A stretch of DNA of 63,035 bases, the filler included, from Sanchytrium tribonematis (lineage: Eukaryota): assembly GCA_018985235.1 (NCBI GenBank). It is 17 parts of 17 records of this genome, joined end to end, with 100 filler letters (N's around TTAATTAATTAA, not from the genome) between each part and the next. Parts side by side here need not be neighbours in the genome. Positions count along the whole stretch, not along the records: positions 1 to 17,920 come from JADGIG010000119.1; 16 more parts are not named here. The stretch is one strand, 5' to 3'. Position numbers and translations under genes: made by a program. Below are positions 43 to 59,787 of the stretch, piece after piece (within the stretch, counting starts at the first letter, position 1; each line of letters starts with the position of its first letter). The notes under the pieces are model-generated. The model worked only from the letters and a program-made list of their open reading frames with translations. It was not told the origin of the DNA and ran no database searches.

Positions 43-201
43 TTTATAAAGGGCAATGAGATGCATTCATTGGTTTATTAGAAGAAAAGTAAGAGTCCCA
101 TGTCTATTATTGGTTTAAATGGGTGAAATGTTTCATGAGATTTGATTGGATAGCGAAAGGTTGATTGTTGATTGGATGAATATTTTACAATGAAATATTG
201 G
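43..201 (-). promoter_or_regulatory. Histone-type promoter: TATA box plus five CCAAT boxes
   Basis: TTTATAAA at 43-50; ATTGG (CCAAT on the minus strand) at 69, 109, 145, 171 and 197, all in the orientation of the histone gene. Confidence 0.6.
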
Positions 202-335
202 AGGTTTTTTTAAAATATATTTATTATGCCGTTTGCCAAAGTTACTTCTTTACAATCGGGTTCGTTTAATGATATTTATTGTTATTCATGATTTCTCCGA
301 GATGCCACAAAAATTCTTTTGATCTCCCTGTAACG

Positions 336-1311
336 ATGCCCATTGAACTGTATTCTCCAGAGTTCTATCTCACATGCGCAACTGGTGGCGTTTTAAGTTG
401 TGGTCTTACTCATTTATTTGTCACCCCATTGGATTTAGTGAAATGTAGACTTCAGGTCAACAAAACCCGCTACAAAGGTACTTTGAATGGACTCAGCACG
501 ATTGCAAAGACAGAAGGTATTGCCGGGCTATATCGTGGAGGTCTTCCAACTGCAATTGGATATTCTCTTCAAGGTGCTTGTAAATTTGGTTTCTACGAAT
601 TCTTCAAACACTATTATTCTGAACTCGTAGGGCCAGAAAATGCTGTACAATACAGAACTTGGGTGTATTTAGCAGGTAGTGCATCGGCTGAAGTGATTGC
701 TGATGTTGCGCTCTGTCCTTTAGAAGCATTAAAAGTGAAAACTCAAACCAATGATGCTTTTCAACCAGGATTAATGAGAGGAATTAGAACTATTATGGCT
801 CAAGATGGTGTCAGTGGTTTCTTCAGAGGTCTCAGTCCATTATGGGGTAGACAAATTCCATATACGATGATGAAATTTGCTAGTTTTGAGAAAGTTGTTG
901 AAACTATTTACACAAAATTAGGTAAATCTAAAGCAGAGTACAACAAACTGCAGCAATTGGGCGTTTCATTTGTAGGTGGATATATTGCAGGTATTTTTTG
1001 TGCTGTTGTGAGTCATCCTGCAGATACTTTGGTCTCCAAAATGAATAATGCTAAAAAACAAGCTGGACAATCAGGATTACAATTGGCTTCTTCTATCTAT
1101 AAGGATATTGGATTTGGAGGATTATGGACTGGCCTTGGCACTAGAATATTCATGGTGGGTACTTTAACTGCCCTACAATGTGATTTATACTAATTTAGGG
1201 TTGATTTACGATTCGTTTAAAGTCTACACTGGATTACCAACATCCGGAGGTGTAGCACCAGTGAAAGCAGCCCCATTGGCAGTTGATGGAAAGGATGCGA
1301 AAGGACATTAA
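336..1311 (+). CDS. PIC2: Mitochondrial phosphate carrier (SLC25A3/Pic2 family); exons 336-1179, 1199-1311
   Basis: Three carrier repeats (PLDLVKCR, PLEALKVK, PADTLVSK) and RQIPYTMMKF; removing the 19-nt intron restores LQWLIYDSFKV. Confidence 0.93.
1180..1198 (+). other. 19-nt spliceosomal intron
   Basis: gtgatttatactaatttag; splicing restores the conserved LQW|LIYDSFK. Confidence 0.92.
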
Positions 1312-1359
1312 TAAATGATTTGAAATGTTTTTGAAATTTTTAGATTTTCTCCTATCAAA

Positions 1360-1740
1360 ATGCGTACTGTCGCGGGATGTGTCTGTTGGGATGAATCCAA
1401 AATTTTGATTATTACTTCCAGAAAGAATAAAAACAAGTGGGTGCTGCCAAAAGGTGGAGTAGAGAAAGAGGAAACGAGTGAAATCGCGGCTATTCGTGAA
1501 CTATATGAAGAAGCAGGGATTCGAGCAACAAAATACACTAAATTACATGAAATGAGAATGGAAAGAAAGACAGGAGAACAAAATAGTGTTTGGTATAGTT
1601 GTCAGATGAGTGAAATATTGGATGAGTGGCCAGAAAAGAATGATAGACTACGTAAATTTGTGACTGTTTTAGAGGCTGGAAATTTATTGAAAAATGATTA
1701 TTTACCAGTATTAAATGCAATCAATGATAATAAATTCTAA
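1360..1740 (+). CDS. DDP1: Nudix hydrolase, diphosphoinositol-polyphosphate diphosphatase (DIPP/Ddp1/Aps1) family
   Basis: AGCVC...ITSRK...WVLPKGGVEKEE...AAIRELYEEAG Nudix box; DEWPE..R.RK. Confidence 0.85.
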   Translation: MRTVAGCVCWDESKILIITSRKNKNKWVLPKGGVEKEETSEIAAIRELYEEAGIRATKYTKLHEMRMERKTGEQNSVWYSCQMSEILDEWPEKNDRLRKFVTVLEAGNLLKNDYLPVLNAINDNKF

Positions 1741-1752
1741 TTCATTGTCAAA

Positions 1753-2169
1753 TCATTCTTTCTCCCATGCCAAAACATCTGCAGTTCCTTTGGCTTTTAC
1801 AAAGTCACCCTCTTCTTCGTCCTCATCTTTTTTCTTCAAGTACTCTGCAAAATCAGCACGTTGTCTATATTGATGACTCACGGTCCTTCCACTAGGGTCA
1901 AAATTAGTATTTTCTTCTAAAGTAGGATCTACTTCTAATTGAACAAGCTCAATTTTTGGCTGGTTCTCATATAAAGCTTCTTTCTTCTTCAAAATGTCCA
2001 TGTACATGTCATCATCAAAATGTTTGAACGGGTCTCTCTTTTCATCGTATTTTTCTGTCTTTTTTACGGAATGAAGTACATCTTTAGCCTTTTTAATGTT
2101 CTTACTCGTTGGTTTTTCTAAACAATCTTTGGTAGAGTGTGATTTTGATTTGCAATTTTTGCATTTCAT
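1753..2169 (-). CDS. SLU7: Pre-mRNA splicing factor Slu7, strongly shortened (138 aa)
   Basis: Zinc knuckle CKNCKSKSHSTKDCLEKP, then YDEKRDPF (cf. YDGKRDRW), YRQRADFAEYL (cf. LRIREDIAKYL) and terminal LAWE (cf. FAWE), in Slu7 order. Confidence 0.8.
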   Translation of the reverse strand: MKCKNCKSKSHSTKDCLEKPTSKNIKKAKDVLHSVKKTEKYDEKRDPFKHFDDDMYMDILKKKEALYENQPKIELVQLEVDPTLEENTNFDPSGRTVSHQYRQRADFAEYLKKKDEDEEEGDFVKAKGTADVLAWEKE

Positions 2170-2202
2170 GGTTTCAGGGATATTAATCTAAAATTTACAT
2201 CA

Positions 2203-2724
2203 TTATTTATTGGTTTGCAAATATTTACGATAGACATATTGTCTCTGGACAATTAAAGCTGCTATGAACAATGTAATTCCAATGCCAATACTTGCCAGGA
2301 TTGTAGCAGTTGTTTTCCACGAATTTCGGGATGTTTCCCACTCATCTTTTTTATCCGGCTGCGCTCTAATTTTATTATCAATTGTAGAATCTACTTGTGC
2401 TCTTACTACAGCCAATTTGGTGATGGCCAATGCCAAGTAACCTAGAATTAAAACAAGAACAGCCCAGATGCTACCCAAAGCTACCTTCTCATGCTTTTTA
2501 ATCAGACTTAAGGTGCCCAATAATGCTGCTATAACTAGCATACCTCCTTTAGTCAATGAAATAGCATCAATGAAAGGTTCTACACCATCATAAATATCTA
2601 CTATTCCCCAAACTAATAATATGAAATAAAGGATACATAATCCCTGTTGAATGCTTAAGCAGCAGCATTTGGGCGGTCCCACCGTCACTTCAGGTTTCTC
2701 TTGGTCTTGAACTTGAGTATTCAT
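2203..2724 (-). CDS. Small membrane protein with about 4 TM helices
   Basis: CCCLSIQQG N-terminal motif, four hydrophobic segments, TAA next to AATAAA. Confidence 0.7.
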   Translation of the reverse strand: MNTQVQDQEKPEVTVGPPKCCCLSIQQGLCILYFILLVWGIVDIYDGVEPFIDAISLTKGGMLVIAALLGTLSLIKKHEKVALGSIWAVLVLILGYLALAITKLAVVRAQVDSTIDNKIRAQPDKKDEWETSRNSWKTTATILASIGIGITLFIAALIVQRQYVYRKYLQTNK

Positions 2725-2785
2725 ATTCAAAAAATTGTTTCAAATGTCCTTAACGTCGTCTAAATATCTATTTATTCTATATAAT

Positions 2786-3388
2786 TTAATAAGTATACAC
2801 TACGGTAGTGTTTGCGTATGATTTTGCAAATTCAATAAAAGCAGCCTTCACGTTTCCAACAACATTCATTTGGAAATTTCCAATAGGACAAACTGCGTCT
2901 TCACAATTTGGACCTGGGGTTACACCAGTCAAGGCGAAATAAGCAGGAATAGATATGTCATGAGCGCTTCCGTTATCCAAAACAATAACTTTAACAGTCT
3001 TACCGTTGAAGATCAAATCTACCAAATCAAAACAATTTCCACCTCCCTTGACCATATAGCCATTTTTTTTAGCGAATTCCCAAACCAATGTCAAATCTTT
3101 CATACCACCTTCAGAAGTTTTCACCAGATCACATCCACCATATCCTGCCTCTAATGGAGCTTCCTTGTTGTAAGTATGGTGACATGTTAGACCGCCCCCA
3201 ACCTGATTCTGACCTAGTGCTTCTATGCATTTTGCAGGTCCAGTGGATGCCACCCAACCATTTCCAGCGGGAGCAGATAAATCACTTGTTAGCTGTGTAT
3301 TTGGGGCAGGAACTGTGGAATTTACAGCAACGGTATTGTTCTCAGTCGATTGACTTTGAGGGAGAGCAGAAAGTATGCTAAATAACAT
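2786..3388 (-). CDS. Secreted double-psi beta-barrel (RlpA/expansin/barwin-like) protein
   Basis: Short signal peptide, S/T-rich linker, G.C...GGGNC...GKTVKVIVLD...HDIS.PAY.AL pattern of DPBB domains. Confidence 0.55.
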   Translation of the reverse strand: MLFSILSALPQSQSTENNTVAVNSTVPAPNTQLTSDLSAPAGNGWVASTGPAKCIEALGQNQVGGGLTCHHTYNKEAPLEAGYGGCDLVKTSEGGMKDLTLVWEFAKKNGYMVKGGGNCFDLVDLIFNGKTVKVIVLDNGSAHDISIPAYFALTGVTPGPNCEDAVCPIGNFQMNVVGNVKAAFIEFAKSYANTTVVYTY

Positions 3389-3426
3389 TGCGATTTGGTG
3401 GAGCGTGAGTCTTTTTAACTACGCAT

Positions 3427-3558
3427 TGATCACTCGCACAGATCAGATTGAGGGGTTTATCGCATCATAGGGGCACCAAAAAATGGCACAGATCATGGCC
3501 ATCATTGCAAAGATCATCAATTGATTGACAGATCACCTAGAATGTACAAATTAGATCA
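3427..3558. promoter_or_regulatory. Cluster of six GATCA motifs upstream of the DPBB gene
   Basis: GATCA occurs 6 times in about 130 bp, three of them as ACAGATCA. Confidence 0.4.
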
Positions 3559-3593
3559 ATGGAAAGAAACATAATTAAGACATTGTAAATTTA

Positions 3594-4107
3594 TTACAAA
3601 GTCCCACAGTCAGAAATGACAATTTTCTTTGATGTAGCACCACTTTGGGTACCAAAAGATTCGATTTTCTTCACAATATCCAATCCATCAATGACTTTAC
3701 CAAAAACGACATGTTTGCCATCTAACCATTCAGTTTTGACTGTCGTGATGAAGAATTGACTTCCGTTGGTGTTTGGACCAGCATTTGCCATGCTTAATTG
3801 ACCTAAATTAATTAGATTTACCTGGACCAGTGTGCTTCAACTTGAAGTTTTCATCTGCAAATCTATTTCCGTAGATAGACTTTCCACCAGTGCCATTGTG
3901 ATTCGTAAAATCACCACCTTGCAACATGAATTGTGGGATAACTCTATGAAATGAGCTTCCTTTGTAGCCAAATCCCTTTTCACCGGTACACAAGGCTTTA
4001 AAGTTCTCAGCGGTCTTAGGCACAACATCGCTGTTCAATTCCATGATAATTTTACCCAAAGGTTGTCCGTCAGCGGTCACTTGAAAAAACACACGAGGTA
4101 ATGACAT
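3594..4107 (-). CDS. CPR1: Cyclophilin A peptidyl-prolyl isomerase; exons 4107-3822, 3802-3594
   Basis: [40 protein letters not shown]; the two ORFs are joined by a 19-nt intron giving [14 protein letters not shown]. Confidence 0.96.
3803..3821 (-). other. 19-nt spliceosomal intron
   Basis: gtaaatctaattaatttag; splicing restores [14 protein letters not shown]. Confidence 0.95.
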
Positions 4108-4170
4108 CTTCTTGCAAAGAGGGGAATCTCCTTTTATTTGAATGCGAAAATTTGTTTATTTTTTTGCCAT

Positions 4171-4659
4171 TTATTGCAAAATGCATTTCTTCTTTTTTTC
4201 AGAGTATTCTGAAAGAAAATTAATTTGAACGTTATTAAATGCTCTTTTTCTGTATTTCCGAACATATTCTATGCATTCTAATGGGTCCATGCCTGCATGT
4301 ATTAGTGCTAATCCCACCAAAACTGGCGCTCTACCTATTCCAGATACGCAGTGAACTGCAATCACCTCCCCAGGTAAATCATTTATAAGTCGAAACCATT
4401 CTTGAATTTGTAATTTGTTTGGAATTCCACCATCCACAAATTTAATGTCATCGTGGATTGTTATTCCATCATCTAAATATGGCTGTACATCATAGGTGTT
4501 ATCGCATAGTCTAAAAACATGTCTAATATTAAATTCTTTTAATTTTTGAATAGTCAACGCGGAATGGGTATTATCAGGGCAATGCATGATTACAAATTTG
4601 TATAATTTAAATTCAATAATATTTGACATGGCCAATATCGCAGATAAATCTTTACTCAT
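4171..4659 (-). CDS. PTP4A: Prenylated protein tyrosine phosphatase type IVA (PRL/PTP4A family)
   Basis: FVDGGIP, HCVSGIGRAP active site, RKRAFN, polybasic tail and C-terminal CAAX CILQ. Confidence 0.85.
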   Translation of the reverse strand: MSKDLSAILAMSNIIEFKLYKFVIMHCPDNTHSALTIQKLKEFNIRHVFRLCDNTYDVQPYLDDGITIHDDIKFVDGGIPNKLQIQEWFRLINDLPGEVIAVHCVSGIGRAPVLVGLALIHAGMDPLECIEYVRKYRKRAFNNVQINFLSEYSEKKKKCILQ

Positions 4660-4691
4660 GCTTTTAAAAGTTTCAAAAATTAATTTATTTT

Positions 4692-5108
4692 TCAAAACAT
4701 CATCCATCCAAGTCTATTGCCATGGTTTCTTTGAGTACCAGTAGTGCAACCACCTGAAACTTTTAGCACACTACAATTACCACAATTTGCACATTCTTGT
4801 ACATGTGTGCAGTTACTAATATACCCTTTTTTAGTCAGAGGATCTAAATAACATTTTCCGTCAGCTACGACAGCCACAGTCACATTAAAATACTCCCACT
4901 GATATACATTTTGGCTAAAAATGGTTGTTAAGCCTGTTTCATTACATTGAACTTGAGTCACATTGGTACTACCCTCTATCTTTTTACAATCCCATGTATT
5001 GGCTTTATTACAAGTAATTGTAGGATTAAATGCCTTCCATAAATAGTAGTTGCTGCAATCTGAGCCTACTGAATATAGCATCAAAGAATAAATAAGAGTC
5101 AAAAACAT
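4692..5108 (-). CDS. Small secreted cysteine-rich protein
   Basis: Hydrophobic N-terminus, 10 Cys, several N-glycosylation sequons. Confidence 0.6.
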   Translation of the reverse strand: MFLTLIYSLMLYSVGSDCSNYYLWKAFNPTITCNKANTWDCKKIEGSTNVTQVQCNETGLTTIFSQNVYQWEYFNVTVAVVADGKCYLDPLTKKGYISNCTHVQECANCGNCSVLKVSGGCTTGTQRNHGNRLGWMMF

Positions 5109-5251
5109 TCAAAGTTGACAAACAAAGAGAATTTCACCAGGAAGAGAGACATCACTAAATCATTATTAATAACTGCAGACTTAGCATTCATTCTATTACT
5201 TGAGAACAATTTAATATTTTCTCAAGATTTTCAAAAAGCCAACTCATTAAA

Positions 5252-7273
5252 ATGAACAAACAAAATCACGCGATAAATGAATTTTATAATACACAATTAG
5301 ATTATATTCGTGATTTGGTGACTATTCAAGAGGAATTTATCAATCCAATTGTAGAGAAAAAGATTTTAAATGATAAAATGATAAATATTATTTTTTCCAA
5401 CTTGAGTGAAATATTAGAAATGGAACGGACATTGTGTCATTTACTAGAGAATTTTAAAGCTAATGACCATTTAGATATAGAAACCATTTGTAAATTAATG
5501 GTAAAACACCATTCCAAATACTTTATTTATATTTATTATGGTAGTCATAACCAATTACAATTATCGAAATTAAAAGAAATAGGCAACCACAAGCAATTCA
5601 AATCATTTCTTGAAGAGAAATATACAAGCAACATATTAAAGGGACTTGATTTGGCATCTTATTTAATAAAGCCAATTCAAAGAATATGTAAATTACCTTT
5701 ATTATTTAAAGAAATGAAAGACATTGATAGTGTAAATGTGATTAATCAAGTTATTTTTGACTATCAGAATCTAATAAATATTGTCAATGAGGCAGCCAGA
5801 AAACCAAATTCAATTATTTGGAGTATTGATTTAGATCATGAATATCAAGACCTCAAATCCGAAGATCGCGTATTACTGAGAACGATTGATTGCAAATTAT
5901 ATAAATCTCTAAAAAGAAGTACTAAATTGCTAGTATTCAACGACTTGATATACTTTAGAGATAAAGCTAATTTCTCCCTAAGTATTGAGAACATTAAAAT
6001 ATGCGATATTAGCGATAGCGAAGGAGATCGCTTAAGCGTGGTTTTAGAAGGCGACTGTCCATTACTGATCCAATTCCCTAATTCGGGTGTCAAAGCGGAT
6101 TTTTATGATGTTTTAAAAAAGATTTGCCATGTAGAAATTGAAGTCTATCCAAAAGATTTAGCTCAAAAACTTATGACAGAAACAGCCAATATCGAAAAAC
6201 CTGAGTCCACTAGACGTAAGTCATCCAGATCAAGTGTATTACCTGATGCTGAGCATTCGCAACAAACCATAAAGATGCAATTAGAAAATTATCAAATGAT
6301 GCAAGCAAAGGAGACTATCAATCGACAAGAATCACTTATTAAAGACTTAAATAACGAGGCAATTCAAAAGAGCAATTATATTAAGCAATTGGAATCTCAA
6401 TTGTATGACCGAGACAACCAATTAAGTATACTATCATCTGAAATGGAACAATGCACAATTCAAATCATGAAAGAAAAAGAAAAAGCCACATTATTAACAC
6501 AACAAATCCATTTAATAATGGATGAAAATGACACAAATTCCAAATTGATAACTACCTTTAAAAATCAAATTGAAGATTTAAAAAGCGAAAACTAGCTGTT
6601 CGCAAATGAAAATGTTAAACTAAAAGAATCAATAAAATATATGGAAATTGATGCTGCAGACATTTTAGCATCTAAAATTGATATGGAAGCCCAGCTTGCG
6701 ACTAACAAAATATCAAATGTAGATTTAAAAGTGGAAATTACACAATTAAAATGTGAAATTCAACAAATTAGAGATGAGCCACGTAAAGATTATGAAAAAC
6801 AATTAGTGGAAATGACCATGGAAATTGGAAATAAAAATAATCTAATTGTTGAAATGGAGAAAGAAATAAAGCAAAGTCATTTGAAGATTGTATATCTGAA
6901 TAATGATGTTGACATTTTAAAAAATTTGAATTTAGATCATAAAAGTTTAAAGTTGTTTCTCGAAGAGAAACTTGACTACATGCTATTAAAAGAGACTCAA
7001 TATGCCACGCACACCTCGCAACTATTGCAGCGTATTATAAATCAGAACCAGAATTTTAAAAATGAGAATAGTCTGCTTACTGCTAGTATTTCGAAATATA
7101 AAATTACTACAAATTTAATTTTGGAATGGTTCGAAATGGCACTTGGCAAAAGAAACGAAGATGATGAGTTGAAAAAACTACTTAACTTAGGATCTGAATT
7201 AGTTAATAAGTACGAAGACTTGAAAGAGGATTATGTGAATTTATTGGGCAAATTTCATCAAAATGATAAATAA
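5252..7273 (+). CDS. Rho guanine nucleotide exchange factor (DH-PH) with long coiled-coil tail; in-frame TAG at 6593-6595
   Basis: AINEFYNTQLDYIRDL, IFSNLSEI and LASYLIKPIQRICKLPLLF DH motifs; ORFs 5252-6595 and 6641-7273 share a frame with continuous coiled-coil character. Confidence 0.8.
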
Positions 7274-13394: not shown

Positions 13395-14619
13395 TTATTG
13401 ATTTGATAAAACATATGTATATGCCCTACTACCTCGAGTCACAATATTTCCACCATTTGCATGAACAATTTTATTCAATCTACCTGGAATACCCAAATAA
13501 GATGCTTTTATGTAGTCTATATCCAAATGATTTAAGAATCTATCTTCAATACATTCCTATGTTATCAAATTATACCTTAAATTTCACCATATCTGACCCA
13601 AAGTATAGCATATCTTCAAGCAACATTTCTTTTACTTGACCAATGCACCCTTCAATTGGATTGATATCAGGTGATCTAGCAGGCCACTCTAAACTGTTAA
13701 TATCTGCAGCCGATAATGCCTCCAAAGATCCATCACCCCAATGAGACGACGCGTTATCATCAATAAATGCGTATGGTTCATTATGTACTACTCTATAATC
13801 CGACTGGCTATTTACTAAACTGCTAGCAATTTTGGGAATTATCTGTCTTTGATAGACATTTGCAGTTACACTTGTGTTTGCCTCAAAGAAATGTATAAAT
13901 ATTGGACCAAATTCGTAAGAAATACACATATATGCCATTATTCCACGTGAACGTTGTACCTCACCTTTAAAGTAAGATTGTTTTGAATAATCACCATACT
14001 TTCGGTACACGAATTGCTGACCTGCACTACAATTGTTTAACTCAAAATAAGCTTCATCTCCAAAGAAAATATTGGTCCAAAAGTGAATTGTTACACACAT
14101 CTTTGACAATGCATATCTATATCGTTCGTCCATTTGTCTTTGACCTAATAAACATGCTCTAATCTTGCGACAACATCTCAAATCCAAATTCTTAGCAAGG
14201 AAAGTACTCAATGTTGCTTCTGCACAGTCTAGAAAGCAATAAATGATAATAGATCTTAATGTAACAACACCTTCATTTGCCTCAATATATATTTCAATGT
14301 CTTCTTTCTTATCCATCGGTATTAGTTTTGGTCTTCCAATTCTCTTTGACTCTGAGATTGATGCATACTTTAAATAACGACACATATTATTTACTATCGT
14401 TTGACCACTATGATTACCTACACATTCATTTCCTATTTGATCAAAATTGATCAATTGATGGATGGTTACATCTGGATTTGTCTCGATCAACTTTTTTATT
14501 GTAAATTTTAATGCACCATATATAATGTCCATTCTTTTATATTCGTTTTTGGTGAATTTGTTGGTGTTATCTGGTCTTGGGACTTGTTCTAGTAGCTGTA
14601 AAAGTTCTCGCTTGCTCAT
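13395..14619 (-). CDS. DD34E Tc1 transposase, 401 aa; exons 14619-13576, 13556-13395
   Basis: GRPK, FGDEAYF, IDDNASSH, WPARSPDINPIE (34 aa between D and E); spliced exon 2 gives the Tc1 tail IPGRLNKIVHANGG. Confidence 0.88.
13557..13575 (-). other. 19-nt spliceosomal intron in the Tc1 transposase
   Basis: gtataatttgataacatag; removal extends the ORF by 53 aa with the conserved Tc1 C-terminal motif. Confidence 0.85.
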
Positions 14620-24520: not shown

Positions 24521-25397
24521 ATGTCTGCTTTTGGTGATTTTAAACCATTATGCCTCAAGACAGTCCTCCCATTCTGTAAAGTATTCAACAGTGACACAGT
24601 AATTCCATGGAAAGACTCAGCTCAAACATGTCAAGCTTCTCGAGTTACTTCTATAGACTCTGATTTGGGTGAGATTATTGCTTGTTTCCTCGCATTTCTA
24701 GGAACATTAATCATTGCATATAGGACATACACGAAATACGCGGCAGTAGGACGCATAGAAATGAATATTTTGAATATATTTTACGGAGGTATTTTACTAA
24801 CAAATGTTTTACTGGGAGTTCCTAGTTTAAGTGATCATTTACCACAAGTAGCAGCTGCGTACTGTGCTTTTATATGTGGTTTCTTCTGGGTGCTATTCAT
24901 GAATGGATTCGTCGGATATCAAGTCGTTGAAGATGGATCTGTGTTGAGTGTTTGGGGAATATTGTTATCTAGTTTATTATTTTCATTTATTGGTGGATAT
25001 TACTCATATGGTGTCGGATGGGGTGGCATCTCTTTATTACCAATCCCCAAATCCAATTCCCCTACACTTTATGGCATATTATTAATATGGCCACTCATTA
25101 GCATGGTTTTATACTGCGGATTAATGGTTATTTTAGTATTCAAGAATTTAAGTCAGCGTAAGCCCATTGTTTACCTGTTTGTAAGTGCCATTTTGATGAT
25201 ATTTTCATGTGTTTTCTCCTTTGCGTTGACAGATCAAATTTGCTCAGGAAGCAACAAAAGTTTATCCGGATTACCATTTGGTGTGATATTTGGATTCCTA
25301 GCATATTGTATGTTATTCAAGTTTTGGTTTTCCATCACAGAGGGTATTTTTAATTTATTTAGACCAATTTGGTGATTTTGATGATGACAAGGTTTAA
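24521..25397 (+). CDS. CHS7: Chitin synthase export chaperone Chs7; exons 24521-25343, 25363-25397
   Basis: FGDFKPLC...LPFC, KYAAVGRIEM, NGFVGYQVVEDGS, IC...GLPFG, KFWFSITEDQF after splicing. Confidence 0.9.
25344..25362 (+). other. 19-nt spliceosomal intron
   Basis: gtatttttaatttatttag; gives SITE|DQFGDFDDDKV ending at TAATAAA. Confidence 0.85.
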
Positions 25398-27764: not shown

Positions 27765-30700
27765 TTATTTACACAATATTTGCAATCTTACATTTGCCTC
27801 TAAATATCCTTTATCAAGTGCTTGCTGGTAATAATTAACAGCCTTATTGATATCCTTGGTGACATCCAGTCCAAATTCATAGATAATACCCAATGAAAAT
27901 AATCCAACTTTGTCTCCATTTGATTTTTCATACCAAATTCGTGCTTTTGTAAAGTCTTTCACACAGCCAGAGCCATTGTAATACATGGTACCCAAATTGA
28001 CACATGAATTTGGCTCATGTAAATCAGCACCTTTTTGAAATAATTCCATTGCTTTTGCATCATTTTTAGCAACATATTGACCATCTCTATACATGGTGCC
28101 CAAATTGTTAAATGCGACTGGATGATTCAATTCTACTGCTTTTGAAAAGTACTCTACTGCTTTTTTATAATCAATTGGACATCCAGAGCCTAGTTTATAA
28201 CAGATCCCAACTCGGTTAATTGCAACAATTTCCCCCAAGTTTGCAGATTGCAAAAATAGTTCAAATGCTTTTACCTCATCTTTTACGACTCCCTGACCAT
28301 CCGCATATAGATTCCCAAGATTATTAAATCCCACAGCTTTATTTAATTTCATCGCTTTTTCAAAATATAATTTGGCATTTGAAAAATCACGCAAATCTGT
28401 ATAAATATTGCCTAAATGACATATTGCCTCATCATATCCCTTTTGAATCGCAATTTTATATAATAGAATTGCTTTTTGAACATCTTTAGGAACGCCCAAT
28501 CCATTTAAATTCAAATATCCCAAATTAAAGAAACTCACAGATTCTCCCATATTTGCAGCTTCTTGATAATATGAAGCAGCCATTATATTATCAACTGCTA
28601 CACCATACCCATTTCTATAAAAAATACCCAATTGATTATACGAGGTATAACTTCCCAAGAAGCTACCGAGTTCATAATATTTCAAAGCTTTTGTATAATT
28701 TTTGTCTTCTTCATATAATTTAGCCAATGAATGAGCCGCACTACCATGATTATTCTTTGCAGCAGACTCGTAAAAAGTCATAGCCGCAGCTCTATTCATG
28801 TTGCATCCTATTCCATCTCTATTGAGCCATCCCAAATAATATGCCGCATATGCATGCTTTTTAATGCTTAGAAACATTTCATATGCTAGTTTCTCATTTT
28901 TATCAATACTCAATCCAAACAACTTCATAATTGCAACTATAAAAATGGCTAAAGGATCTTTCAAAGGTTTCAAAATTTGATATGCACTCTCAATTGACTT
29001 GCTGCAGCCAATTCCAAAGTAAAGAAATATGCAATTCCAAGTTGGATCACTTTTAATAGTATTATATAGTTTAATATACTCATTCACATTCGATTTGAGA
29101 GCAGTAATCAAATATTGCTCAATATAATAGATTTCATATTGATTCAATAATGTGATGAAATTCTTTTTATATTGACTCGGATTACCAATGGATTCCTCTA
29201 ATTCCTCGTGAATAGACTGCTTTGTGGGCGGACCCACTAGATCTTCAATAATTTCATTTGAAATCAAGGAGTCAGAATTTACATCAAGTAAATCTTCCAT
29301 TTCTTTAACTTTAGTAGTCGCTGATGTATCACCATACTTTTCAGCATTTCTGTAATAATCTAGTGCCAAATTTAGATTTTTATTGATGCCGAGTCCACCT
29401 TCATAAAGCACTCCCAAAGAGTAATGAGAAGCTGCAACATTTGATTTGGCACCCAATTCATAATATTCTCTCGCTTTTACATAATCTTGCGGTACTCCAT
29501 AGCCATAAAAGTAAGCGGTACCAATATTATTAGACCCAACTGCCAAACCTTGACTCTCTGCAGCTTTAAAACATTCTAATGCTTTATCGTATTGCTTCAT
29601 TTCTTGATATAAGTTGCCCAAATGAACATGAGATTGATAATAACCCATAGAAATGGCCACTTGAAAATTTGATTTTGATTTCTCTAAATCTTTTACACAT
29701 CCAGTTCCTACTTGATACAATCGACCTAATACATGATAACTAGCACTTTCTCCAAATTCAGCACCTTTTGAATAGTATTTAAATGCTTCAGACATGTCTA
29801 AATTCTTGTAAATTCCATTTTCATAAAAATGCGCAACTTGGTGGTATCCAGTGGAATAACCACCTTTTGAGGCTTCAAAATACATCTCAAATGCCTTTCT
29901 TTGATCTATTTCTACACCCATACCATCTTTGTAGCACCAAGCAAGATAGAAATATCCTGGGGCAATTTTCAATTCTGCTAATTTTTTGTAATATTCAACT
30001 GCAACATTTAAATTTTTAACGGTCCCTGCACCATATTGAGACATGAATCCTAAAAATAGATTAGCAAGTGGCTCAGTACAAGACTTGAAAATATTGAAAA
30101 TATGAGTCTCATTGTTTGCAAAATGGATGGAAAAGTAGTCTAGAACATTCATGAAGAACTTGCTGGAGTACTTGAATTTGATTTGGTCGACAAGAGACTT
30201 GAATGCGTTCATTTCTATAAAAAATAACTCAATATTATAAATTTGATTTGTATTGATTAATTTCAACAAAGCTGCTTCAAATGTATCTATATCTTGACCA
30301 ATTAGGGCATTTTCTACTAGCTTAAATAAAGGCAAGCCATTAGTACCATCTAAATTGACACTTTTCTTAATGATTTGAGGTGTCGGGGACTTGATTGAGT
30401 TTGGAGAGGATGAGCTCGTTGAGCTATCATATTTAGAGTCGTTTTTGACATCTTTTGTCGGAATAGATTGTGTAGAAACCTGCTTATTCACTTGTTTGGA
30501 TGGCTTATCCAGTAAAGCAACCATTTCTTTCATAGAAATGCGGTCTTTTGGATGTTGGGTCCAACCTTTAATGATAATCTCAAAAATCGAACCATCAATC
30601 TCTTTTGCTGAATATGGCCGCATACCTTGTCCAACTGCCTTTTCCATATCTTTGGAACCCATATCTTTCCATGGAATCGTTTTCGTGCAAATTTCCCCGA

Positions 30701-31979: not shown

Positions 31980-32127
31980 GATATTGGCCTAGTCAGATAG
32001 ACATAGCTACAAAGTGGGTCAATTAATTCAAAAGACAAAGTCCCATTGCACTCAGGACTTTTAGATCATTTGATTGGGTATTAGACAGGGATTTCCCCGT
32101 TTAACATCGTTGTCGAATCATTCCAAA

Positions 32128-32868: not shown

Positions 32869-33468
32869 ATGTTGAGACTAGATAAACCAAAGCATGAAAT
32901 CCCATTATCTCTCTGGTTCATTACTTGTATAACGTATAGCATCTACATTATCATTTATGATCAAGATACGGTCACATTGGTTTCCAACATTTCAAATATG
33001 GTCATCAACATGGCAGCATTAACCATACTATTCGTGAATCATATTAATGCAAAAAAGGCCATATTTATTCTATATTTGGTAGTTTCAAATATCATTTTTG
33101 CTGCGTATGTGATTTCCCAAGATTCTTTCCCAACCTTAACAAGTGAAGCCGCTATGGTATATTTCCTAGGAAATGTGATGGTTTATATATTATTTTCAAA
33201 ACATATCCAATTATCACAGCCAGGTTTCGTATCTGCAGAATTACCAATGACTAGAGATTCCAATATTGATCTTAAAACAAGTCAGTTGGATGCATATGAA
33301 TTACAACTTACCACACCTAGTCCTTCAAAAGATCCTATTCCTAATATAGTAGACCCTATAGCGTCAGATTCAATTGTCGAACAAACAGAATTCGATGAAA
33401 CAGCACAAGAAAGTCAAGATTTAGTAGAAAAGCAAGAATTACATGAAATCGTATCTAAAAATCAGTAA
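32869..33468 (+). CDS. 4-TM membrane protein, probable tandem paralog of 32128-32715
   Basis: LFVNHINAKKAIFILY versus LFVKNIRFKQIIYAIY; YFLG versus YFIG. Confidence 0.65.
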   Translation: MLRLDKPKHEIPLSLWFITCITYSIYIIIYDQDTVTLVSNISNMVINMAALTILFVNHINAKKAIFILYLVVSNIIFAAYVISQDSFPTLTSEAAMVYFLGNVMVYILFSKHIQLSQPGFVSAELPMTRDSNIDLKTSQLDAYELQLTTPSPSKDPIPNIVDPIASDSIVEQTEFDETAQESQDLVEKQELHEIVSKNQ

Positions 33469-33478
33469 ATTATATTTA

Positions 33479-34559
33479 TTAAGTAGTAAATCGCTCCGCA
33501 ACATCAAATAGCAACACCGTTCTCGTTCTCTGTATTTTAGGTGCAAAATCTGGTGCTTTATAACTGGCTCGTTCTCCCATGACCACTAAATTAATTTAAA
33601 TTACATCGATGTAAAAAGAAGTCTCTTCCAACAGCATCTTTTTTAATAATAGGTGGATCTGGTAATTCTGGAAAGAAGGGAGGAACGCCTTTGCGAGTTG
33701 CAAACATCAATTTGTAACCATCTGGATGGGGTGTTACAGCAGCAATCACATGATTTTGTTTAGAGGTATTTGTTTTTATGTCATATACAGCACCAGGTTC
33801 TACAAAAACAATCGTCACAATGTCATTTCCAATATGTCTTTTTTTCTCAATTTGTTGTCTGTCATGTGGATTATGAGGAAGAAAAGCAGCAACATGGAAC
33901 ATAATTTCATATCCCTGCCACTTGGTATACAAAGATTTATCACCAGTCAAACTATTTTGAACATCAAGACCGGCTTTATATTCTTGCCAGCCTTTTAATT
34001 TTATTTCTTCACCTAAAAAACTCAAAAACTCTTTATAAGCAGGTGTACCATCTTTTTCTGTATTTCCAAACATTTCTTCTTCTGTAGACTGTCCATTTTT
34101 AATATGCGTGAGTCCAAATTTGTAACTACGAATCACTTGTCTTTCTTCCATACTCAATAATTCATTGGGTAAACTAGAGTCTTTACTAATTTGAAGTAAA
34201 TTAGTGGGAACTGTTTCTGTACATGCCCGAATCACAGCATACGGAGTAGGTCCGAGTCCAAATAATTTCCGGATGAATGAATTTTGAACTTGATCATATA
34301 AACACGACAATCTAAGGGATCCATCTGGTGATCTAACAAGTACTTTGTACGTAGCACCATCTAATATCACAGATACAGCCATAGGGCCCTTTGGAGATTT
34401 GGGAATCAACAAGTTCAAGTGAGATTTACCAAGAAAATTATCTCTATAATAAATAATATCTTTTTCACATTCTTGTAATAAACTATCGTGAACTCCCGTC
34501 ACTCTCGCATTTGGGTTCGTGGACTGAATTTCAAAATCAGAGCCAGTCGCTTTCAACAT
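33479..34559 (-). CDS. Rap GTPase-activating protein (Rap1GAP family); exons 34559-33605, 33585-33479
   Basis: YKFGL...GQSTEEEMFGN, YKAGLD, EIMFHVA, KKRHIGNDIV; spliced tail LVMGERASYKAPDFA...RTR. Confidence 0.9.
33586..33604 (-). other. 19-nt spliceosomal intron
   Basis: gtaatttaaattaatttag; restores FFLHR|LVMGERA (cf. FLLTKLINAENA). Confidence 0.92.
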
Positions 34560-35681: not shown

Positions 35682-36708
35682 ATGATTTCTAAACTCAAAT
35701 TAGTTGTGATTTTAGTATTTCTGACCATCCACGCTACCACATTACACGTATTTATCCAAATACCCGCGTATATCTTCATCAAATTGAACCCACTTATTAA
35801 AAACAAACAAATATACACTATTTGTAGCCAGCAAGCATTAATTGCATGGGGACATGTCAGCGTGATTATTATGCAATATTGTTTACCAGTCACACTCGTA
35901 CTATCTGGACTATCCAAATTTCCACGTGAAAATGCGATTGTTATTTCAAATCATTTAACTTATGCAGACTGGTTATTTTTATGGATGATTGCTCATTATA
36001 ACAATAGATTAGCAGGTATCAAGATAATTTTAAAAGAATCACCCAAATATGTCCCAATATTCGGATCTGCCATGGTTTTATTCGAATTCATATTTTTAAA
36101 AAGAAAATGGGAGCAAGATAAACCAATGCTAGCTCATAAACTACAATCTCATGTGAATACCAATGACATGTTCTTGATGATATTCCCAGAAGGCACCATT
36201 TTAGCAGATGATACATGCGCAAAATCAAAAGATTTCTGTCTCAAAAATAATTTGGTAAATTTCATTTATTTAGAAAGTATCCGACATGACACTCGTACCA
36301 CGCACAACAGGACTCTCATTTATCACTCAGAATATAGAATATGATGCCATTTATGATTTTACAATGGCATTTAAAGATTTAAGCAAGCAAGAATATCCAT
36401 ATCAAAAATATCCACTTTTAAGCATGTTAACCACTTCTAAATACCCTAAAGAAGTCCATTTTCACTGTAGAAGAATCCCCAAATCAGATATCCCACAACC
36501 CATTGATCAATGGCTTTATAAAATATTTGAAGAAAAAGATGAAATGATTCAAAATTATTTGAAAACTGGTCAATTAAAGCACCCGACTGATGTAGAATAT
36601 CATGAAACTAGATATAAACCTGCTTTTAAAGAATTTCCCATTCAAATTGCCTATTTATGGTGTTTGATGGCTTTATTTGCTGGAATTTACTTGAACAATA
36701 AATATTAA
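35682..36708 (+). CDS. Lysophospholipid acyltransferase (LCLAT1/Cst26-like); exons 35682-36254, 36274-36708
   Basis: NHLTYADW, FIFLKRKW, IFPEGT, LVPRTTG, IYDFT, WLYKIFEEKD. Confidence 0.9.
36255..36273 (+). other. 19-nt spliceosomal intron
   Basis: gtaaatttcatttatttag; joins the two ORFs as NNL|KVSDMTLVPRTTG. Confidence 0.92.
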
Positions 36709-40054: not shown

Positions 40055-40477
40055 TTACTTGAATAGACTTTTCATAAATGTTTTGTGCTCTGAGTTGTTA
40101 ATTGTATCATTTAAATGTGCTTTCTTCTTGGGCGGTTCTATTTTTTCCGTAAATATTGTGTCTTGATCCCATTTTCGTTTCATTTGATAATTTGTAGAAA
40201 TCTCAGTTGGCTCTTCGTGTTCTAACTCATCCAAGAGATCCTCGATATTATCACTTATTTCACTGTCTGATTCTGAATTTTTTGAAGCAGCTTGAGAAAG
40301 TTCTGAAGAGCTGTCATAGTCAACCAATTTTTCAACTATTTTAACATTCTCTTCTGCCACTTCATTCTCAATCTCCCGCTTCTTCATTTTCATTTCTTTA
40401 GGAAGATCCCTAGAACTTTTAAATGAATTTTTATAATTAAAATCATCTAAACGAGTCCCGCCTTTTGCTGGTTTCAT
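40055..40477 (-). CDS. CWC15: Spliceosome-associated protein Cwc15, shortened (140 aa)
   Basis: PAKGG...SSRDLP...MKKR N-terminal motif; KRKWDQDTIF and LNDTINNSEHKTFM (cf. KRRWDDDVVF, VNDTLRSEFHKKFM). Confidence 0.85.
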   Translation of the reverse strand: MKPAKGGTRLDDFNYKNSFKSSRDLPKEMKMKKREIENEVAEENVKIVEKLVDYDSSSELSQAASKNSESDSEISDNIEDLLDELEHEEPTEISTNYQMKRKWDQDTIFTEKIEPPKKKAHLNDTINNSEHKTFMKSLFK

Positions 40478-40505
40478 CCCAAGTTTGCAAAAGATTAAAA
40501 TTTTA

Positions 40506-41368
40506 CTAAAGTTGATGTTCTCTAAGCTTGCGATGTAGCTCTGTGGGCACAGTTCCTTTGGTTTCTGGTATAAATTTGGCCATTATGACAAAACCAAAAA
40601 CTCCATATGCCACAAAAATTAGAAATACGTATGAATTTAACAAGGCTGTCAGCGGGATAAATCCAAATGACACGAGAAAATTGCTGATCCAGTTTACAGG
40701 GTTAGCAATGCCATTGGCTATGTCTACGGTTGTTCCATCAAAAAGCTCTCCAATTAATATAAATGGAATCACACATAAACCGACGGAGAAACCAGTAACT
40801 ATTGATATAAAAAATACAAAAGCCAACACTGGTAAATGAAATAACATACCCAACATTAATCCAAGTTGAGAAATTGATGTCCATACAATACTTATTAGCA
40901 GCAATTTTTTTCTTCCAATTCTTTCAATCAGAAAAGAGGAGCTCAAAGTAGAAAATATATTATATAGAGCTATTAGTAAAGAATAAAAAGCAGCTTGAGA
41001 TCCGAACAAATCTTTCAAAATAGACGCCGAATAAAAGAATACAACATTGATACCAGTAAGCTGCATGCTGGAATGGGCGGCAATGAGACCGATAAGTAAT
41101 TTGAGATACATTTTGTCTTTAAGCATAGACCATAACGAAAGCTGAGGCTCGTTGTCTGTTTTCTGGGCCCAGGCGGATATTTCTTCGATCACGTCATGGT
41201 TACTTGGACGAAGGGTCCTGAGAATACTTTGAGATTTTTGCATATTAGCTTCTGATTGCATATATAAATATTTTGGGCTTTCTGGACAAAAAAATATAGC
41301 AGCAAATTGAATGACTGCAGTAACGATTGGAAATCCCACGATTAGCCTCCAATCTTTCAAAAGATAAC
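40506..41368 (-). CDS. MFS sugar porter (GLUT-like), 3' part
   Basis: PESPKYL, QLTGINVVFFYS, ERIGRK, PETKG. Confidence 0.92.
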
Positions 41369-43295: not shown

Positions 43296-43569
43296 GAGAG
43301 TGCAAAAAGCATGGATGAAATTAAACGACAAATATTGTCAGAATTGGCTAGTTGGAAGCATGAGAAGGAAATCAAACGACGCCCTAGACAATTGAGCACG
43401 TAATATTTATTAATTTAGATTAAATGCGCCTGATTTACAACAGGCTAAAAAAGTGCCAAAAGCCAATTATGAAACGGATAAAGTCAATGCATTGGCTGAG
43501 GAACATACAGATGTCGTGGTGGATGAGGATTTGGAGAAAGAGCTAGCTGGAATGGGATTAAAACAATAA
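43296..43569 (+). CDS. 3' end of a gene resembling a MAP kinase C-terminus; exons ..43399, 43419-43569
   Basis: ESAKSMDEIKRQILSELASW resembles the MAPK terminal helix; the spliced ORF ends at TAA within AATAAA. Confidence 0.5.
43400..43418 (+). other. 19-nt spliceosomal intron
   Basis: gtaatatttattaatttag; matches the consensus and removal extends the frame by about 50 codons. Confidence 0.8.
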
Positions 43570-45122: not shown

Positions 45123-45960
45123 AAGATCAAAGAAGATTGTATTATGGGATATACTAAAAAAGGATGGGTTACTCAATCATTATTAATCAAATATCTGAAT
45201 TACATTTTACCATTTGGAAATGCATTGCTTATTTGGGATCATTGTTCAGCACATGGAGCTTCTAGAACAGAAAATATTATGAGTGAATATTTGGCAAATA
45301 AGAAAATTAAATGCTTATATGTTCCAAAAGGTGCAACTGGATATTGCCAAGTAGCAGATGTGGCTATTATTAGATCTTTAAAGTGTAATATCAGAAAGTC
45401 TATTAGAAACTTTTATACTGAACAAGTCAACAATTTATGGGAAAATTCTGAATTGTCAAAAGTATTAAAAAAACCACCTATTGGTAATTTAAGAAAATGG
45501 ATTGTAGAGCATTGGAATCAAGTTCCACTTTCCATTATTGAAAATGGTTTAAAAACATGTTACTACAGTGAAAATATTGGAGATTTGCACATGGCAAAAG
45601 TGAATGATCTGAGTATTTAATATTAATTTAGAAAGAGATTTTTTAAATGCATGGGAAAGAGTCCAAATGTTTGACGAAGTCATGGCTTCTTTAACTGGAG
45701 GTCCAGCATATTCTGGCTCATTTGATTTTTGCGATGATATTGAGATTACTGATGAAGGAATTCCAGTTTTTGACTTTGAAAATCAAACTGAAGAGCCAGA
45801 AGTGATGGTGTATTCATTGTTAAGTGAAGAAGAATAAATATATTGATTTGATAGAACATTTTATTAATATGGGGGGGGAATTGTATTTTTATAGTCGAAA
45901 TCCTATCCAATTTCCCCGGGGGAATTGATTAGGAGGGGGGAATTGGATGGGTAAACACTT
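45123..45960 (+). mobile_element. 3' half of a pogo-like (DDE_1) transposon; transposase exons ..45612, 45632-45837; probable right terminus at 45960
   Basis: KGWVT, LLIWDHCSAH, VPKGATGYCQVADV (DD39D spacing); subterminal GGGGGAATTG x3; ends ...GTAAACACTT-TA. Confidence 0.8.
45613..45631 (+). other. 19-nt spliceosomal intron in the pogo-like transposase
   Basis: gtatttaatattaatttag; removal opens a 68-aa acidic tail ending GAA TAA A. Confidence 0.82.
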
Positions 45961-48752: not shown

Positions 48753-49442
48753 GTATTATTGATGTCACCATCACCAATGCCACGCCACTAGGAAAGAATT
48801 GCAGTCTTGCAAACAATCCAATGTCACCAGGAGTGTTTGGTAAAACATTTAAAAATCAATGCAACGTGACTGGCGTGTACGTGAAGAGTAACAGCACCTG
48901 TAGGATATTGGCATTGGGTGAATTGACGACTATTGCTTCCAAAACAAGCAGAAAAACATCTGCTTTTCTAACAACAACGGAAACCAAAGGAGCTCCTACA
49001 GCAGCGTCTCAAACGACTCAAGATTCAAAGCCTACAGCAGCTATGACTTCAGTCGTCAGTCAAATGCCACAAGGAACGATAACTTCCATTCCAGCTCCTA
49101 CAATTGTTGTACGTATTTTGCATTTATTTAGGTCCAATTCGCTCAACATCATCCGCTTCTTCAACGTTTGCTAAAGCAAATGAACAAACGACATTATATG
49201 AGACATCTATATTTAGTGATTTTATTGAGGTTCATGACAACAATACGACTGAAGAAACAGCAGCAGCCCCATCTCAATGGCAATCACAACAAATAACTGC
49301 TGAATGGTCGTTGTTCAGAATTATCAAAATATTAATTGATATTTTATTATTTCTACTTATAGTCAGACGGACACCTTCTCAAAAGTTATTCACAAAAAGT
49401 GAATCTCGCGGTGCCACTAGTCGTTTGGGTACTACTTTTTAA
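48753..49442 (+). CDS. S/T-rich single-pass surface protein, 3' part; exons ..49112, 49132-49442
   Basis: Mucin-like stalk and TM; two overlapping ORFs joined by a 19-nt intron. Confidence 0.65.
49113..49131 (+). other. 19-nt spliceosomal intron
   Basis: gtattttgcatttatttag; joins the ORFs as VVR|PIRSTSS. Confidence 0.82.
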
Positions 49443-50461: not shown

Positions 50462-50595
50462 NNNNNNNNNNNNNNNNNNNNNNNNNNNNNNNNNNNNNNN
50501 NNNNNTTAATTAATTAANNNNNNNNNNNNNNNNNNNNNNNNNNNNNNNNNNNNNNNNNNNNCGCTTAAGCGCCATCCATTTTCAGGGCTGGTTCA

Positions 50596-50631
<36 letters not shown>

Positions 50632-50641
50632 TCCGACTTCC

Positions 50642-50934
50642 CGGTTATTCCATTTGCTTTCACAACGTTGGACCCGACTATATCTTAAATTCTCTTCGAG
50701 AACCCACCAACATCTAGTCTGTGTACTGCATCCATAGCCCAAAGGCCTTAGGACTTGGCTGCGGATTGTCCAATCCTTGACATTTTTACCGTACCCAAGT
50801 GATTAACCTGGCCATGTACTCTCTTTCGAGGTACACTTGGTAGTCAAGGCTCTAAGGAACTCCCCGCACTTTGATGGTGTTGCATGACATGTCATACTAG
50901 CGCAACTTTGTCTTGCGCTTTGGACCACTGAAAT
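50642..50934 (-). ncRNA. Group I intron, subgroup IC1, 293 nt, about site L1066
   Basis: Inserted in GGCCAT^GGAAGTC; exon ends U, intron ends G; P AAAGTGCGGGGA, Q AATCCGCAGCC, R CAGACTAGATG, S AAGATATAGTC. Confidence 0.92.
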
Positions 50935-51048
50935 ATGGCCACCGTCCTGCTGTCTAGATGAACCAACACCTTTTCTGGGATCTAGATGAGCGTATACTCT
51001 GGCACCTTATCCTAGCTTTCGGAGCATCCCGCATCGCCAGTTCTGCTT

Positions 51049-51403: not shown

Positions 51404-51570
51404 ACCAAAAATGGCCCACTAAGCACTCTGCATTCGTTGCCCAGGTTCAATCAAGTAACGAGGGCTTCTTACATATTGTAAGTTTGAGAATAGGTTAAGG
51501 TTGTTACAACCCCAAGTCCTCTAATCATTCGCTCTACCTCATAAAACTGCTGTGAGTGCCTGCTATCCTG

Positions 51571-55968: not shown

Positions 55969-57196
55969 GTTCTGGCCAAGCTCAAATCGCACAACTTGAA
56001 CCTGACATCTATTAATTCGACCACCACGAAAGACCCTAGTGCTGACTATCAATTTAACATTCTATTCGAGTCTCCCAAAGAATATGATCTTTCAAAGCTT
56101 AAGGCTGATCTTATGTCTGAGACAGACATCAAATACTGCCATATTACTTCAACCAAAGACGACGAATTTTCAGCATGGTTTCCAAAGCAAATTAAAGACT
56201 TAGACACTTTCGCAGAGAAGGTTATGAGTTACGGGATGGAGCTTGATGCCGACCATCCTGGATTTAAAGATCCTGACTACAGAAAAAGACGATCGGACAT
56301 TACTGAAATGGCAAAAACTTACAAGACTGGAATGCCGTTACCCCACGTTGACTATACTAAAGCAGAATTAGAGACTTGGAAAATCGTTTATACTGAACTT
56401 ACAAAACTATTTTCTACACACGCTTGCTCTGAACATCAGCAAGTTTTTCCTTTACTTGTTCGTCATTGTGGCTATGGGCCGAATAATATTCCTCAAATTC
56501 AAGATATTTCAAACTTTTTAAAGACTTGCACTGGCTTTACTCTGAGACCGGTTATGGGACTTTTAAGCTCAAGAGATTTTTTGAATGGCCTTGCATTCAG
56601 AGTTTTTCACTCGACTCAATATATTAGACACTCTAGCAAGCCGTTTTACACACCAGAACCTGATGTGTGCCATGAACTTCTTGGACATGTCCCGATGTTT
56701 GCTGATCCCGATTTCGCTGATTTTTCTCAAGAAATTGGTTTAGCTTCACTAGGCGCAAGTGACGATGATATCAAAAAATTAGCAACTGTATTTATTTTTA
56801 ACTTAGTTATATTGGTTTACAGTAGAGTTTGGAGTTACCAAAGAAGGTGATGAAATAAGAGCCTACGGCGCCGGTTTATTAAGTAGCTTTGGTGAATTGG
56901 AATATTGTGTTAGTGCAAAGCCGAAACATGTTCCCATGGATCCATGGAAAGCTGTAGAAACAAAATATCCCATTACAGAATTCCAACCGCTTTACTATGT
57001 GACTGAGTCTTTTAAAAAAATGAAGCAACAAGTGAGAGAATTCTCGAAAACTTTGAAGCGAAAGTTTGGAGTTCGCTATAATCCTTACACTGAATCGATC
57101 GAAGTTCTAGATTCCCATCAACAAATCGTGCGATTTATTCAAGATATTCATGGCGATATGGAGGTCTTGTTGGATGCCTTAGAGATACTTAAATAA
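55969..57196 (+). CDS. PAH: Phenylalanine 4-hydroxylase (5' partial); exons ..56787, 56807-57196
   Basis: [46 protein letters not shown] after splicing, [17 protein letters not shown]. Confidence 0.95.
56788..56806 (+). other. 19-nt spliceosomal intron
   Basis: gtatttatttttaacttag; restores [13 protein letters not shown]. Confidence 0.95.
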
Positions 57197-59697: not shown

Positions 59698-59787
59698 TAA
59701 ATTCAATTTACTCGCAACTATTCGCAATTTTATGTCTCATAAAGATGTTTGTGATTGATTTGGATCCCCTAAGGAGTTTCCTGTGAA

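Follow-up and report, generated by a model that had tools for sequence, protein, structure and literature searches.

Introduction

Heterotrich ciliates are reported to splice introns of 15–16 nt that have nearly a single length, start with GTA, are A+T-rich and carry an A at -6 with a 5-nt tail behind it. In Stentor coeruleus this is A10 of 15, and the reported U1 ACUUACCU, U2 GUAGUA and U6 ACAGAGA are all kept (PMC9505925); in Blepharisma undulans the intron motif is given as GTAAWWTTTATWTAG (PMC13685798). A branch motif that abuts the acceptor, with a 2-nt branch–AG distance (A at -6) and no pyrimidine tract, is also described in Yarrowia lipolytica, where introns are long (median 204 nt) and the ACTAAC is strict, and a fixed branch–AG spacing is reported for Trichomonas and Giardia (PMC2483917). 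Encephalitozoon cuniculi, a reduced parasite in the fungal radiation, has a few dozen introns of 22–76 nt with a strict 5' site and a TAAYTT hexamer, and its U1 snRNA is described as not identified (PMC2483917, PMC3629993). Introns of 18–21 nt occur in chlorarachniophyte nucleomorphs, where they are A+U-rich, take several lengths, are described as having no discernible branch A, and have been proposed to be excised in a ruler-like manner (PMC6009652). Those of myxobolids and dicyemids (medians 22–27 nt) vary in length, with GTa at the 5' site, a weak, sliding A, ancestral positions and a retained U2AF (PMC13644364).

Here we describe ten 19-nt GT–AG inserts, very likely introns, in a 63,035-nt window of DNA from Sanchytrium tribonematis, a fungus that parasitises algae (17 contigs with N-linkers; 33.6% G+C), 61.6 kb of which were scanned for introns. 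Each linker consists of 44 N, TTAATTAATTAA and 44 N, and the ORFs that touch one are cut fragments. The sanchytrid introns share with those of heterotrichs the GTA start, the A+T richness and the 5-nt tail, together with a near-single length below 25 nt (for a set of ten introns in 61.6 kb) and a conserved A at -6, present in 10/10 introns and in the tail of a relative's protein (P0142); their end is almost that of the Blepharisma motif. They differ from the 15-nt (3n) ciliate introns with a 10-nt loop in being 19 nt long (3n+1) with a 14-nt loop, and they add a recognisable Y-T-N-A-Y branch motif. As the host is a fungus, a shared origin with the tiny introns of ciliates was rejected and the resemblance is convergent, the two having arisen independently.

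Among the other systems, Yarrowia shows the same 3' layout, whereas the sanchytrid motif is degenerate and the total length fixed. E. cuniculi is likewise a reduced parasite, and its TAAYTT occupies positions 12–17 in 6/10 sanchytrid introns, yet the latter combine 19 nt and a weak 5' site with a density of about 10 introns per 62 kb window and with U1 proteins in relatives. Nucleomorph introns belong to the same size class, but the sanchytrid ones have one length and a clear branch motif and lie in an ordinary nuclear genome; relative to those of myxobolids and dicyemids, with which they share the GTA start, the keeping of an ancestral position and the retention of U2AF (annotated in a relative), they are shorter and fixed. 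In the literature searched (most subscription journals lie outside it) we found no description of sanchytrid spliceosomal introns, and these 19-nt introns would be the shortest fungal ones in it. The fusion of putative branch point and acceptor that the original prediction reported for this window is indeed present, but a branch A at -6 without a pyrimidine tract was already known from Yarrowia, Stentor and Blepharisma, which it did not mention. What is new is the lineage, the single length (against 22–76 nt in E. cuniculi) and a 138-aa mini-Slu7: these introns work like the tiny introns of heterotrichs, but a fungal phylum has arrived at them on its own; its branch motif is clearer, and one of its second-step factors is truncated.

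Ten Probable 19-nt Introns and the Genes That Carry Them

Removal of the 19 nt restores or extends the ORF in 10/10 cases, the junctions being fixed by homology in three and supported by domain or ORF completion in four and by motif plus frame in three. Junctions were assessed with a homolog HMM test, which scored every GT/GC..AG of 8–120 nt near a break, and with a motif-blind finder, which used a codon model and flat lengths of 12–80 nt without any internal motif; ORF joining as a screen was too noisy alone (at least 424 candidates in 74 groups). In the homology test, the phase 1 intron of a mitochondrial phosphate carrier (1180..1198, + strand) ranked first of 65 candidates (540.7 vs. 506.8 bits) and the phase 0 intron of a phenylalanine hydroxylase (PAH; 56788..56806, +) first of 149 (668.8 vs. 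655.8 bits), with contiguous Pfam positions (205|206) over the PAH junction.

The motif-blind finder recovered the phase 1 intron of a cyclophilin gene (3803..3821, -; GTAAATCTAATTAATTTAG). Its removal restores the frame between two exons (3822–4107 and 3594–3802 of the gene at 3594..4107, -) with the junction HTGPG|QLSMAN, and the Pfam Pro_isomerase positions are nearly contiguous over it (2–86 in exon 1, 91–158 in exon 2); the predicted branch A14 falls at window position 3808. Also found motif-blind were a phase 0 intron in a DDE_3 (Tc1-like) transposase (13557..13575, -; the sole intron of the ten with A16), which adds 53 aa, a phase 1 intron in a DDE_1 (pogo-like) transposase (45613..45631, +), which adds 67 aa, and, at the lowest penalty, a phase 2 intron in a gene fragment (43400..43418, +), around which we looked for homology support and found none. 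The two transposases may be domesticated genes or elements that have gained host-type introns; neither has a second copy within the window.

In the remaining four genes, domains, frame and motif carry the evidence. A phase 0 intron (36255..36273, +) connects the Acyltransferase and Acyltransf_C ORFs of an acyltransferase, with exact ends that depend on the motif, the motif-blind finder having picked a 43-nt alternative. Without removal of the phase 1 intron of a Rap-GAP gene (33586..33604, -) the domain ends at position 154/185 of the Pfam model and 292/341 of Rap1GAP; exon 2 (34 aa) alone gave no PDB or Pfam match. For a phase 1 intron in a Ser/Thr-rich, probably membrane-anchored protein (49113..49131, +), placed by frame restoration and motif only, the finder took the same donor with a length of 64 nt. 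The weakest case is a motif-based phase 1 intron near the end of Chs7 (25344..25362, +), where the Pfam Chs7 match already ends at 278/287 in exon 1 and exon 2 has 10 aa.

The ten 19-nt inserts are real and non-random. The pattern proposed in the original prediction matches 12 times when the length is set to 19 nt; over the 48 other lengths between 12 and 60 nt, the mean is 3.9 matches and the highest count 9 (Poisson P = 0.0008). A match at 58110–58128 (-) was rejected, the ORF there being already open and splicing creating a stop, and 5155–5173 (-) was left out of the set as non-coding; this consensus-fitting 19-mer, with TGAT and without coding support, is a possible UTR or terminal intron.

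A Single Length

Independently of the motif, 19 nt stands out as the preferred length. The motif-blind finder returned 19 nt in 5/21 introns at its lowest penalty and in 4/12 and 2/5 at higher ones, every other length receiving at most two calls, most of them in decayed elements or gene fusions. All five 19-nt calls carry T12, A14 and TAG; the finder missed 5/10 introns and gave different ends for two of these. When matrices of the 5' and 3' ends were scored independently of length at every length from 15 to 40 nt, 11 matches appeared at 19 nt (9/10 introns and two candidates ending in AAG), none at 15–18 or 20–29 nt, and one each at 30, 32, 37 and 40 nt; since the ten introns themselves served as the training set, only the length result is independent. 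The AAG-ending candidates (33465–33483, +; 59693–59711, -) are consensus-like 19-mers without coding support and possible UTR or terminal introns; if real, they would break the invariance of T17.

Other interruptions in the window were examined as introns and rejected. The in-frame stops at 6593 and 54907 have an open frame on both sides, and a frameshift near 49880 and the breaks in decayed retroelements were set aside. Each of the two stops (6593–6595, +, in a RhoGEF; 54907–54909, +, in an ankyrin gene) is single within a long ORF and may reflect an error, a pseudogene or read-through.

The Predicted Branch Point and Its Pairing With Canonical U2

A recount bore out the original alignment in full: G1, T2, T12, A14, T17, A18 and G19 are invariant in 10/10 introns, A3 is present in 9/10, A10 in 8/10 and T16 in 9/10, and position 15 is a pyrimidine in 10/10. 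An all-A column arose in 0.032% of 100,000 shuffles of the intron interiors (permutation P for A14 invariance = 0.0003), and when only the six introns recovered motif-free are aligned, A fills columns 13 and 14 and T fills columns 12 and 17 (P = 0.0001). The context is that of a Y-T-N-A-Y branch site (T12 and A14 in 10/10, Y11 in 9/10, Y15 in 10/10). With canonical U2 GUAGUA, which may not be the sequence of the host's own U2, 50/60 positions pair when A14 is bulged (33 Watson–Crick, 17 G–U), against 18, 35 and 21 of 60 with positions 13, 10 and 16 bulged, and a bulged A14 is the ordinary yUnAy register. The proposal that A14 is the branch nucleotide thus gains support from both motif context and U2 register; the assignment is well supported, if inferred from sequence, and branching at A14 would give a 14-nt loop and a 5-nt tail.

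We considered whether A14 might instead mark a site for SF1/U2AF proteins or reflect a bias towards stop codons, with branching elsewhere or at multiple positions. TAA stands at 12–14 in 7/10 introns and would give a stop on retention in one phase, A10 is present in 8/10 introns and pairs with U2 at the 35/60 positions given above, and the nucleomorph introns show that introns of 18–21 nt can do without a discernible branch A, as far as described. However, A14 persists whichever of the three phases an intron has, and also in the remaining three introns, which have TTA in place of TAA; a 3n+1 intron requires no internal stop; and the best U2 register is at A14, its position at -6 agreeing with three other lineages. 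We consider such a mark very unlikely.

A minor-spliceosome origin was also rejected. U12-type introns have the consensus RTATCCTT at the 5' site and TCCTTAAC at the branch, while C makes up 4% of the intron interiors here and ATCC at +3..+6 occurs in 0/10 introns. Judged by their sequence, the inserts are very likely introns of the major (U2-type) spliceosome.

The 5' Splice Site and the Distance to the Predicted Branch

The original prediction also noted the lack of G at +5 and proposed that U1 and U2 could hardly bind together and that the pairing of U6 ACAGAGA is probably altered. G at +5 is absent in 10/10 introns, as stated, but this absence is no signal alone (P = 0.82), because the interiors are A+T-rich and G makes up only 3/150 of their bases (2%). 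Canonical U1 finds only 4–8 of 9 Watson–Crick matches at the ten 5' sites. Human spliceosome assembly is reported to need about 50 nt from the 5' site to the branch (PMC6692369), whereas G1 and the predicted branch are 13 nt apart in the 19-nt introns. This leaves no room for U6 and U2 to form their extended helices together, so some protein or RNA change is required. The steric problem is thus real, although the core sites of U1 (+1..+6) and U2 (+9..+15) do not overlap.

Spliceosomal Proteins and a Truncated Slu7

Two core spliceosomal proteins of the host are encoded in the window: Cwc15 (40055..40582, -, stop-to-stop ORF limits; Pfam Cwf_Cwc_15, E 6e-8) and a 138-aa mini-Slu7, a second-step splicing factor (1753..2169, -; weak Pfam Slu7 match, E 0.007). 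The mini-Slu7 gene is bounded by adjoining genes, and the protein shows the features of its family, a zinc knuckle and, behind it, the Pfam Slu7 region, of which it covers about profile positions 2–100 of 253. It aligns with full-length Slu7 at the zinc knuckle, KRD and R-x-R-x-D-x-x-x-YL motifs; the N-terminal region and the entire C-terminal half are gone, as is an internal segment. A profile search with mini-Slu7 brings up Slu7 proteins (15/15 tested are Pfam Slu7, 260–575 aa), while a PDB search with the same profile returned no Slu7 chain. One relative (P0123) passes the Pfam Slu7 cut-off, and the Slu7 proteins of two relatives (148 and 113 aa) stop at the same motif. In yeast, ligation is reported not to require Slu7, Prp18 and Prp22 if the 3' tail is shorter than 7 nt (PMC12393901), a limit also given as 9 nt or fewer (PMC10158995). 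We infer that a 5-nt tail would make the 3'-site search function of Slu7 unnecessary, which would explain a Slu7 of 113–148 aa.

For the remaining proteins we turned to the inventory of the relative Amoeboradix gromovi (PMC8371127, MOESM3), whose rows are automatic best-hit labels; the coverage extends over the sheet for A. gromovi and the opening part of the second sheet, for S. tribonematis. Annotated in A. gromovi are U1-70K, a U1A/U2B'' protein, Prp40, the large and small U2AF subunits, BBP/SF1, SF3B1, Prp8, Dbr1 and UPF1, together with a weak METTL16-family match; the part of the S. tribonematis sheet that was covered holds U1-70K and Dbr1 (PMC8371127). Of the factors whose presence the original prediction had left to be checked, U2AF, SF1, Dbr1 and some of the U1 snRNP proteins are annotated in this relative. 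A search of the A. gromovi table by identifier did not recover U1C, Prp39, Luc7, SF3b14, Slu7 or Prp18, and the spliceosome may therefore have lost more than supposed; such absence is weak evidence, since the Slu7 of the window itself has diverged too far for annotation of this kind. An Rfam scan of the window at gathering scores found no spliceosomal snRNA, only LSU rRNA and group I introns, and a U6 motif scan of viral contigs gave 0 matches.

These data bear on whether the introns, real and branching at A14, are spliced by a rewired machine in which U1 is lost or bypassed, U6 ACAGAGA is changed, or both, and a ruler from the U2-bound branch sets the 5' site. A 5' site of only GTA plus A/T with its few U1 matches, the 13 nt where human needs about 50, a mini-Slu7 that shows a changed spliceosome, and the failure to find U1C, Prp39 and Luc7 in the A. 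gromovi table all speak for it, and there are reported precedents in the changed U1 of Entamoeba, the changed U6 of Cyanidioschyzon merolae (C. merolae) and the E. cuniculi U1 snRNA that was not found. Yet both published sanchytrids have an annotated U1-70K, and A. gromovi an annotated Prp40; heterotrichs are reported to retain all five snRNAs, motifs intact, and still to splice introns of 15 nt; and the missing G at +5 is what composition predicts. With U1-70K, U2AF, SF1 and Dbr1 kept in A. gromovi, exclusion of U1 finds no support, and neither does an altered U6, given C or G at +5 in the A. gromovi PAH intron (by back-translation) and the ACAGAGA kept in Stentor. Precedent does not favour snRNA changes in sanchytrids, and we regard a rewired machine as unlikely.

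We therefore prefer, with fair though incomplete confidence, the reading that these are U2-type introns, likely shrunk from ancestral ones, that branch at A14 and are handled by a largely conventional spliceosome. Such a spliceosome would read the 5' GTA through a short contact with U1, U5 and U6, while SF1 and an unmodified U2 GUAGUA would read AYTWAY at positions 10–15 using G–U pairs. Helices next to the 5' site and to the branch would have to be shortened or to form sequentially; branching would yield a loop of 14 nt with a tail of 5 nt, and the AG would be chosen at the minimal branch-to-AG distance, without scanning, which would leave Slu7 free to shorten. As 19 is 3n+1, retention of any intron puts the transcript out of frame and would expose it to nonsense-mediated decay. 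A bolder version, in which sanchytrid introns, the shortest of fungi and animals, are all kept at 19 nt by a ruler and the spliceosome has co-evolved, with Slu7 reduced to a third, peripheral U1 proteins lost, U1 or U6 changed or bypassed, and a branch-bound U2 snRNP placing both splice sites, is one we hold only tentatively and think rather improbable.

Origin of the Introns and Evidence From Relatives

The closest named relatives of the carrier and PAH are A. gromovi proteins (75 and 78% identity), against at best 65 and 63% for other named fungi. In FastTree trees, the window proteins group with A. gromovi and environmental proteins (support 1.0 for PAH, 0.835 for the carrier), which places the host among the sanchytrids as a lineage separate from A. 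gromovi. A metagenome scan with the sanchytrid carrier alignment gave at least 80 loci of at most 63% identity, with no close relative among the matches listed.

PAH exon 2 begins at human residue 324, and human PAH intron 9 (IVS9+1) is reported as c.969+1, after codon 323 (PMC4579200); the 19-nt intron thus has the same position and phase as human intron 9. The shared position makes shrinkage in place from an ancestral intron likely, as judged from the one intron (PAH) for which ancestral position was tested. Seven proteins of the clade, called without intron models, end a few residues past a conserved site, and relatives' proteins break at the same PAH site. From these tails, relatives' introns were inferred by back-translation: a GT-compatible start is found in 7/7, and G at +5 is excluded in five and possible in two. 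At the P0142 break, where 100/101 homologs have His, the tail is compatible with 19 nt that carry T12, A14 and T15 and have a stop at 17–19; the A. gromovi carrier tail fits A10, T12 and a purine at 14. In P0124 and P0125 the AYT motif is shifted one base towards the 3' end, so those relatives may have introns of 20 nt or a different register.

These comparisons also bear on the notion that the inserts are unspliced footprints of mobile elements, assembly artefacts or lesions of pseudogenes. Two of them do lie within transposase genes, and the window holds unrelated stops and frameshifts (6593, 54907, about 49880). On the contrary, the inserts differ from one another at positions 3–9, all lie on the coding strand and break single essential genes, and one coincides with a human intron at a site where relatives break as well. 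A contig from run X1 also spans 157–4771 gap-free, although this run is possibly source data and so not independent. Taken with these points, an artefactual or unspliced origin seems to us scarcely credible.

Implications for Annotation and for Second-Step Chemistry

According to the sanchytrid genome paper, TransDecoder was run on contigs and proteomes were predicted without intron models; its main text does not contain the string "splic". Public sanchytrid protein records (P0001, P0031 and P0126) end within unrecognised introns; records cut short in this way include two of A. gromovi and that of the carrier gene of the window itself. The published sanchytrid proteomes thus include truncated proteins, and some gene losses reported for the phylum may be annotation artefacts, since records stop in introns that were not recognised.

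More broadly, an independent fungal origin of ultra-short introns is added here. That one more lineage converges on a branch A at -6 suggests that the second step has a physical lower limit. Since sanchytrid proteins align well with those of yeast and human, comparison of Prp8, SF3b, the U1 proteins, the branching factors and mini-Slu7 is a direct route to the question of how 13 nt can suffice where human needs about 50.

Other Features of the Window

An LSU rDNA fragment (50562–52266, -) contains two Rfam group I introns (50653–50923 and 51580–51874) and a third insertion of about 350 nt near 51050–51400 that has no Rfam match. The intronless 1407-aa ORF at 27765–31988 (-) holds what we take, by eye, to be a kinase domain followed by many Sel1-like repeats. 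On a fungal contig, the ORF at 52370–53461 (-) encodes a Tle1-like phospholipase catalytic domain (Pfam PF09994, E 1e-29).
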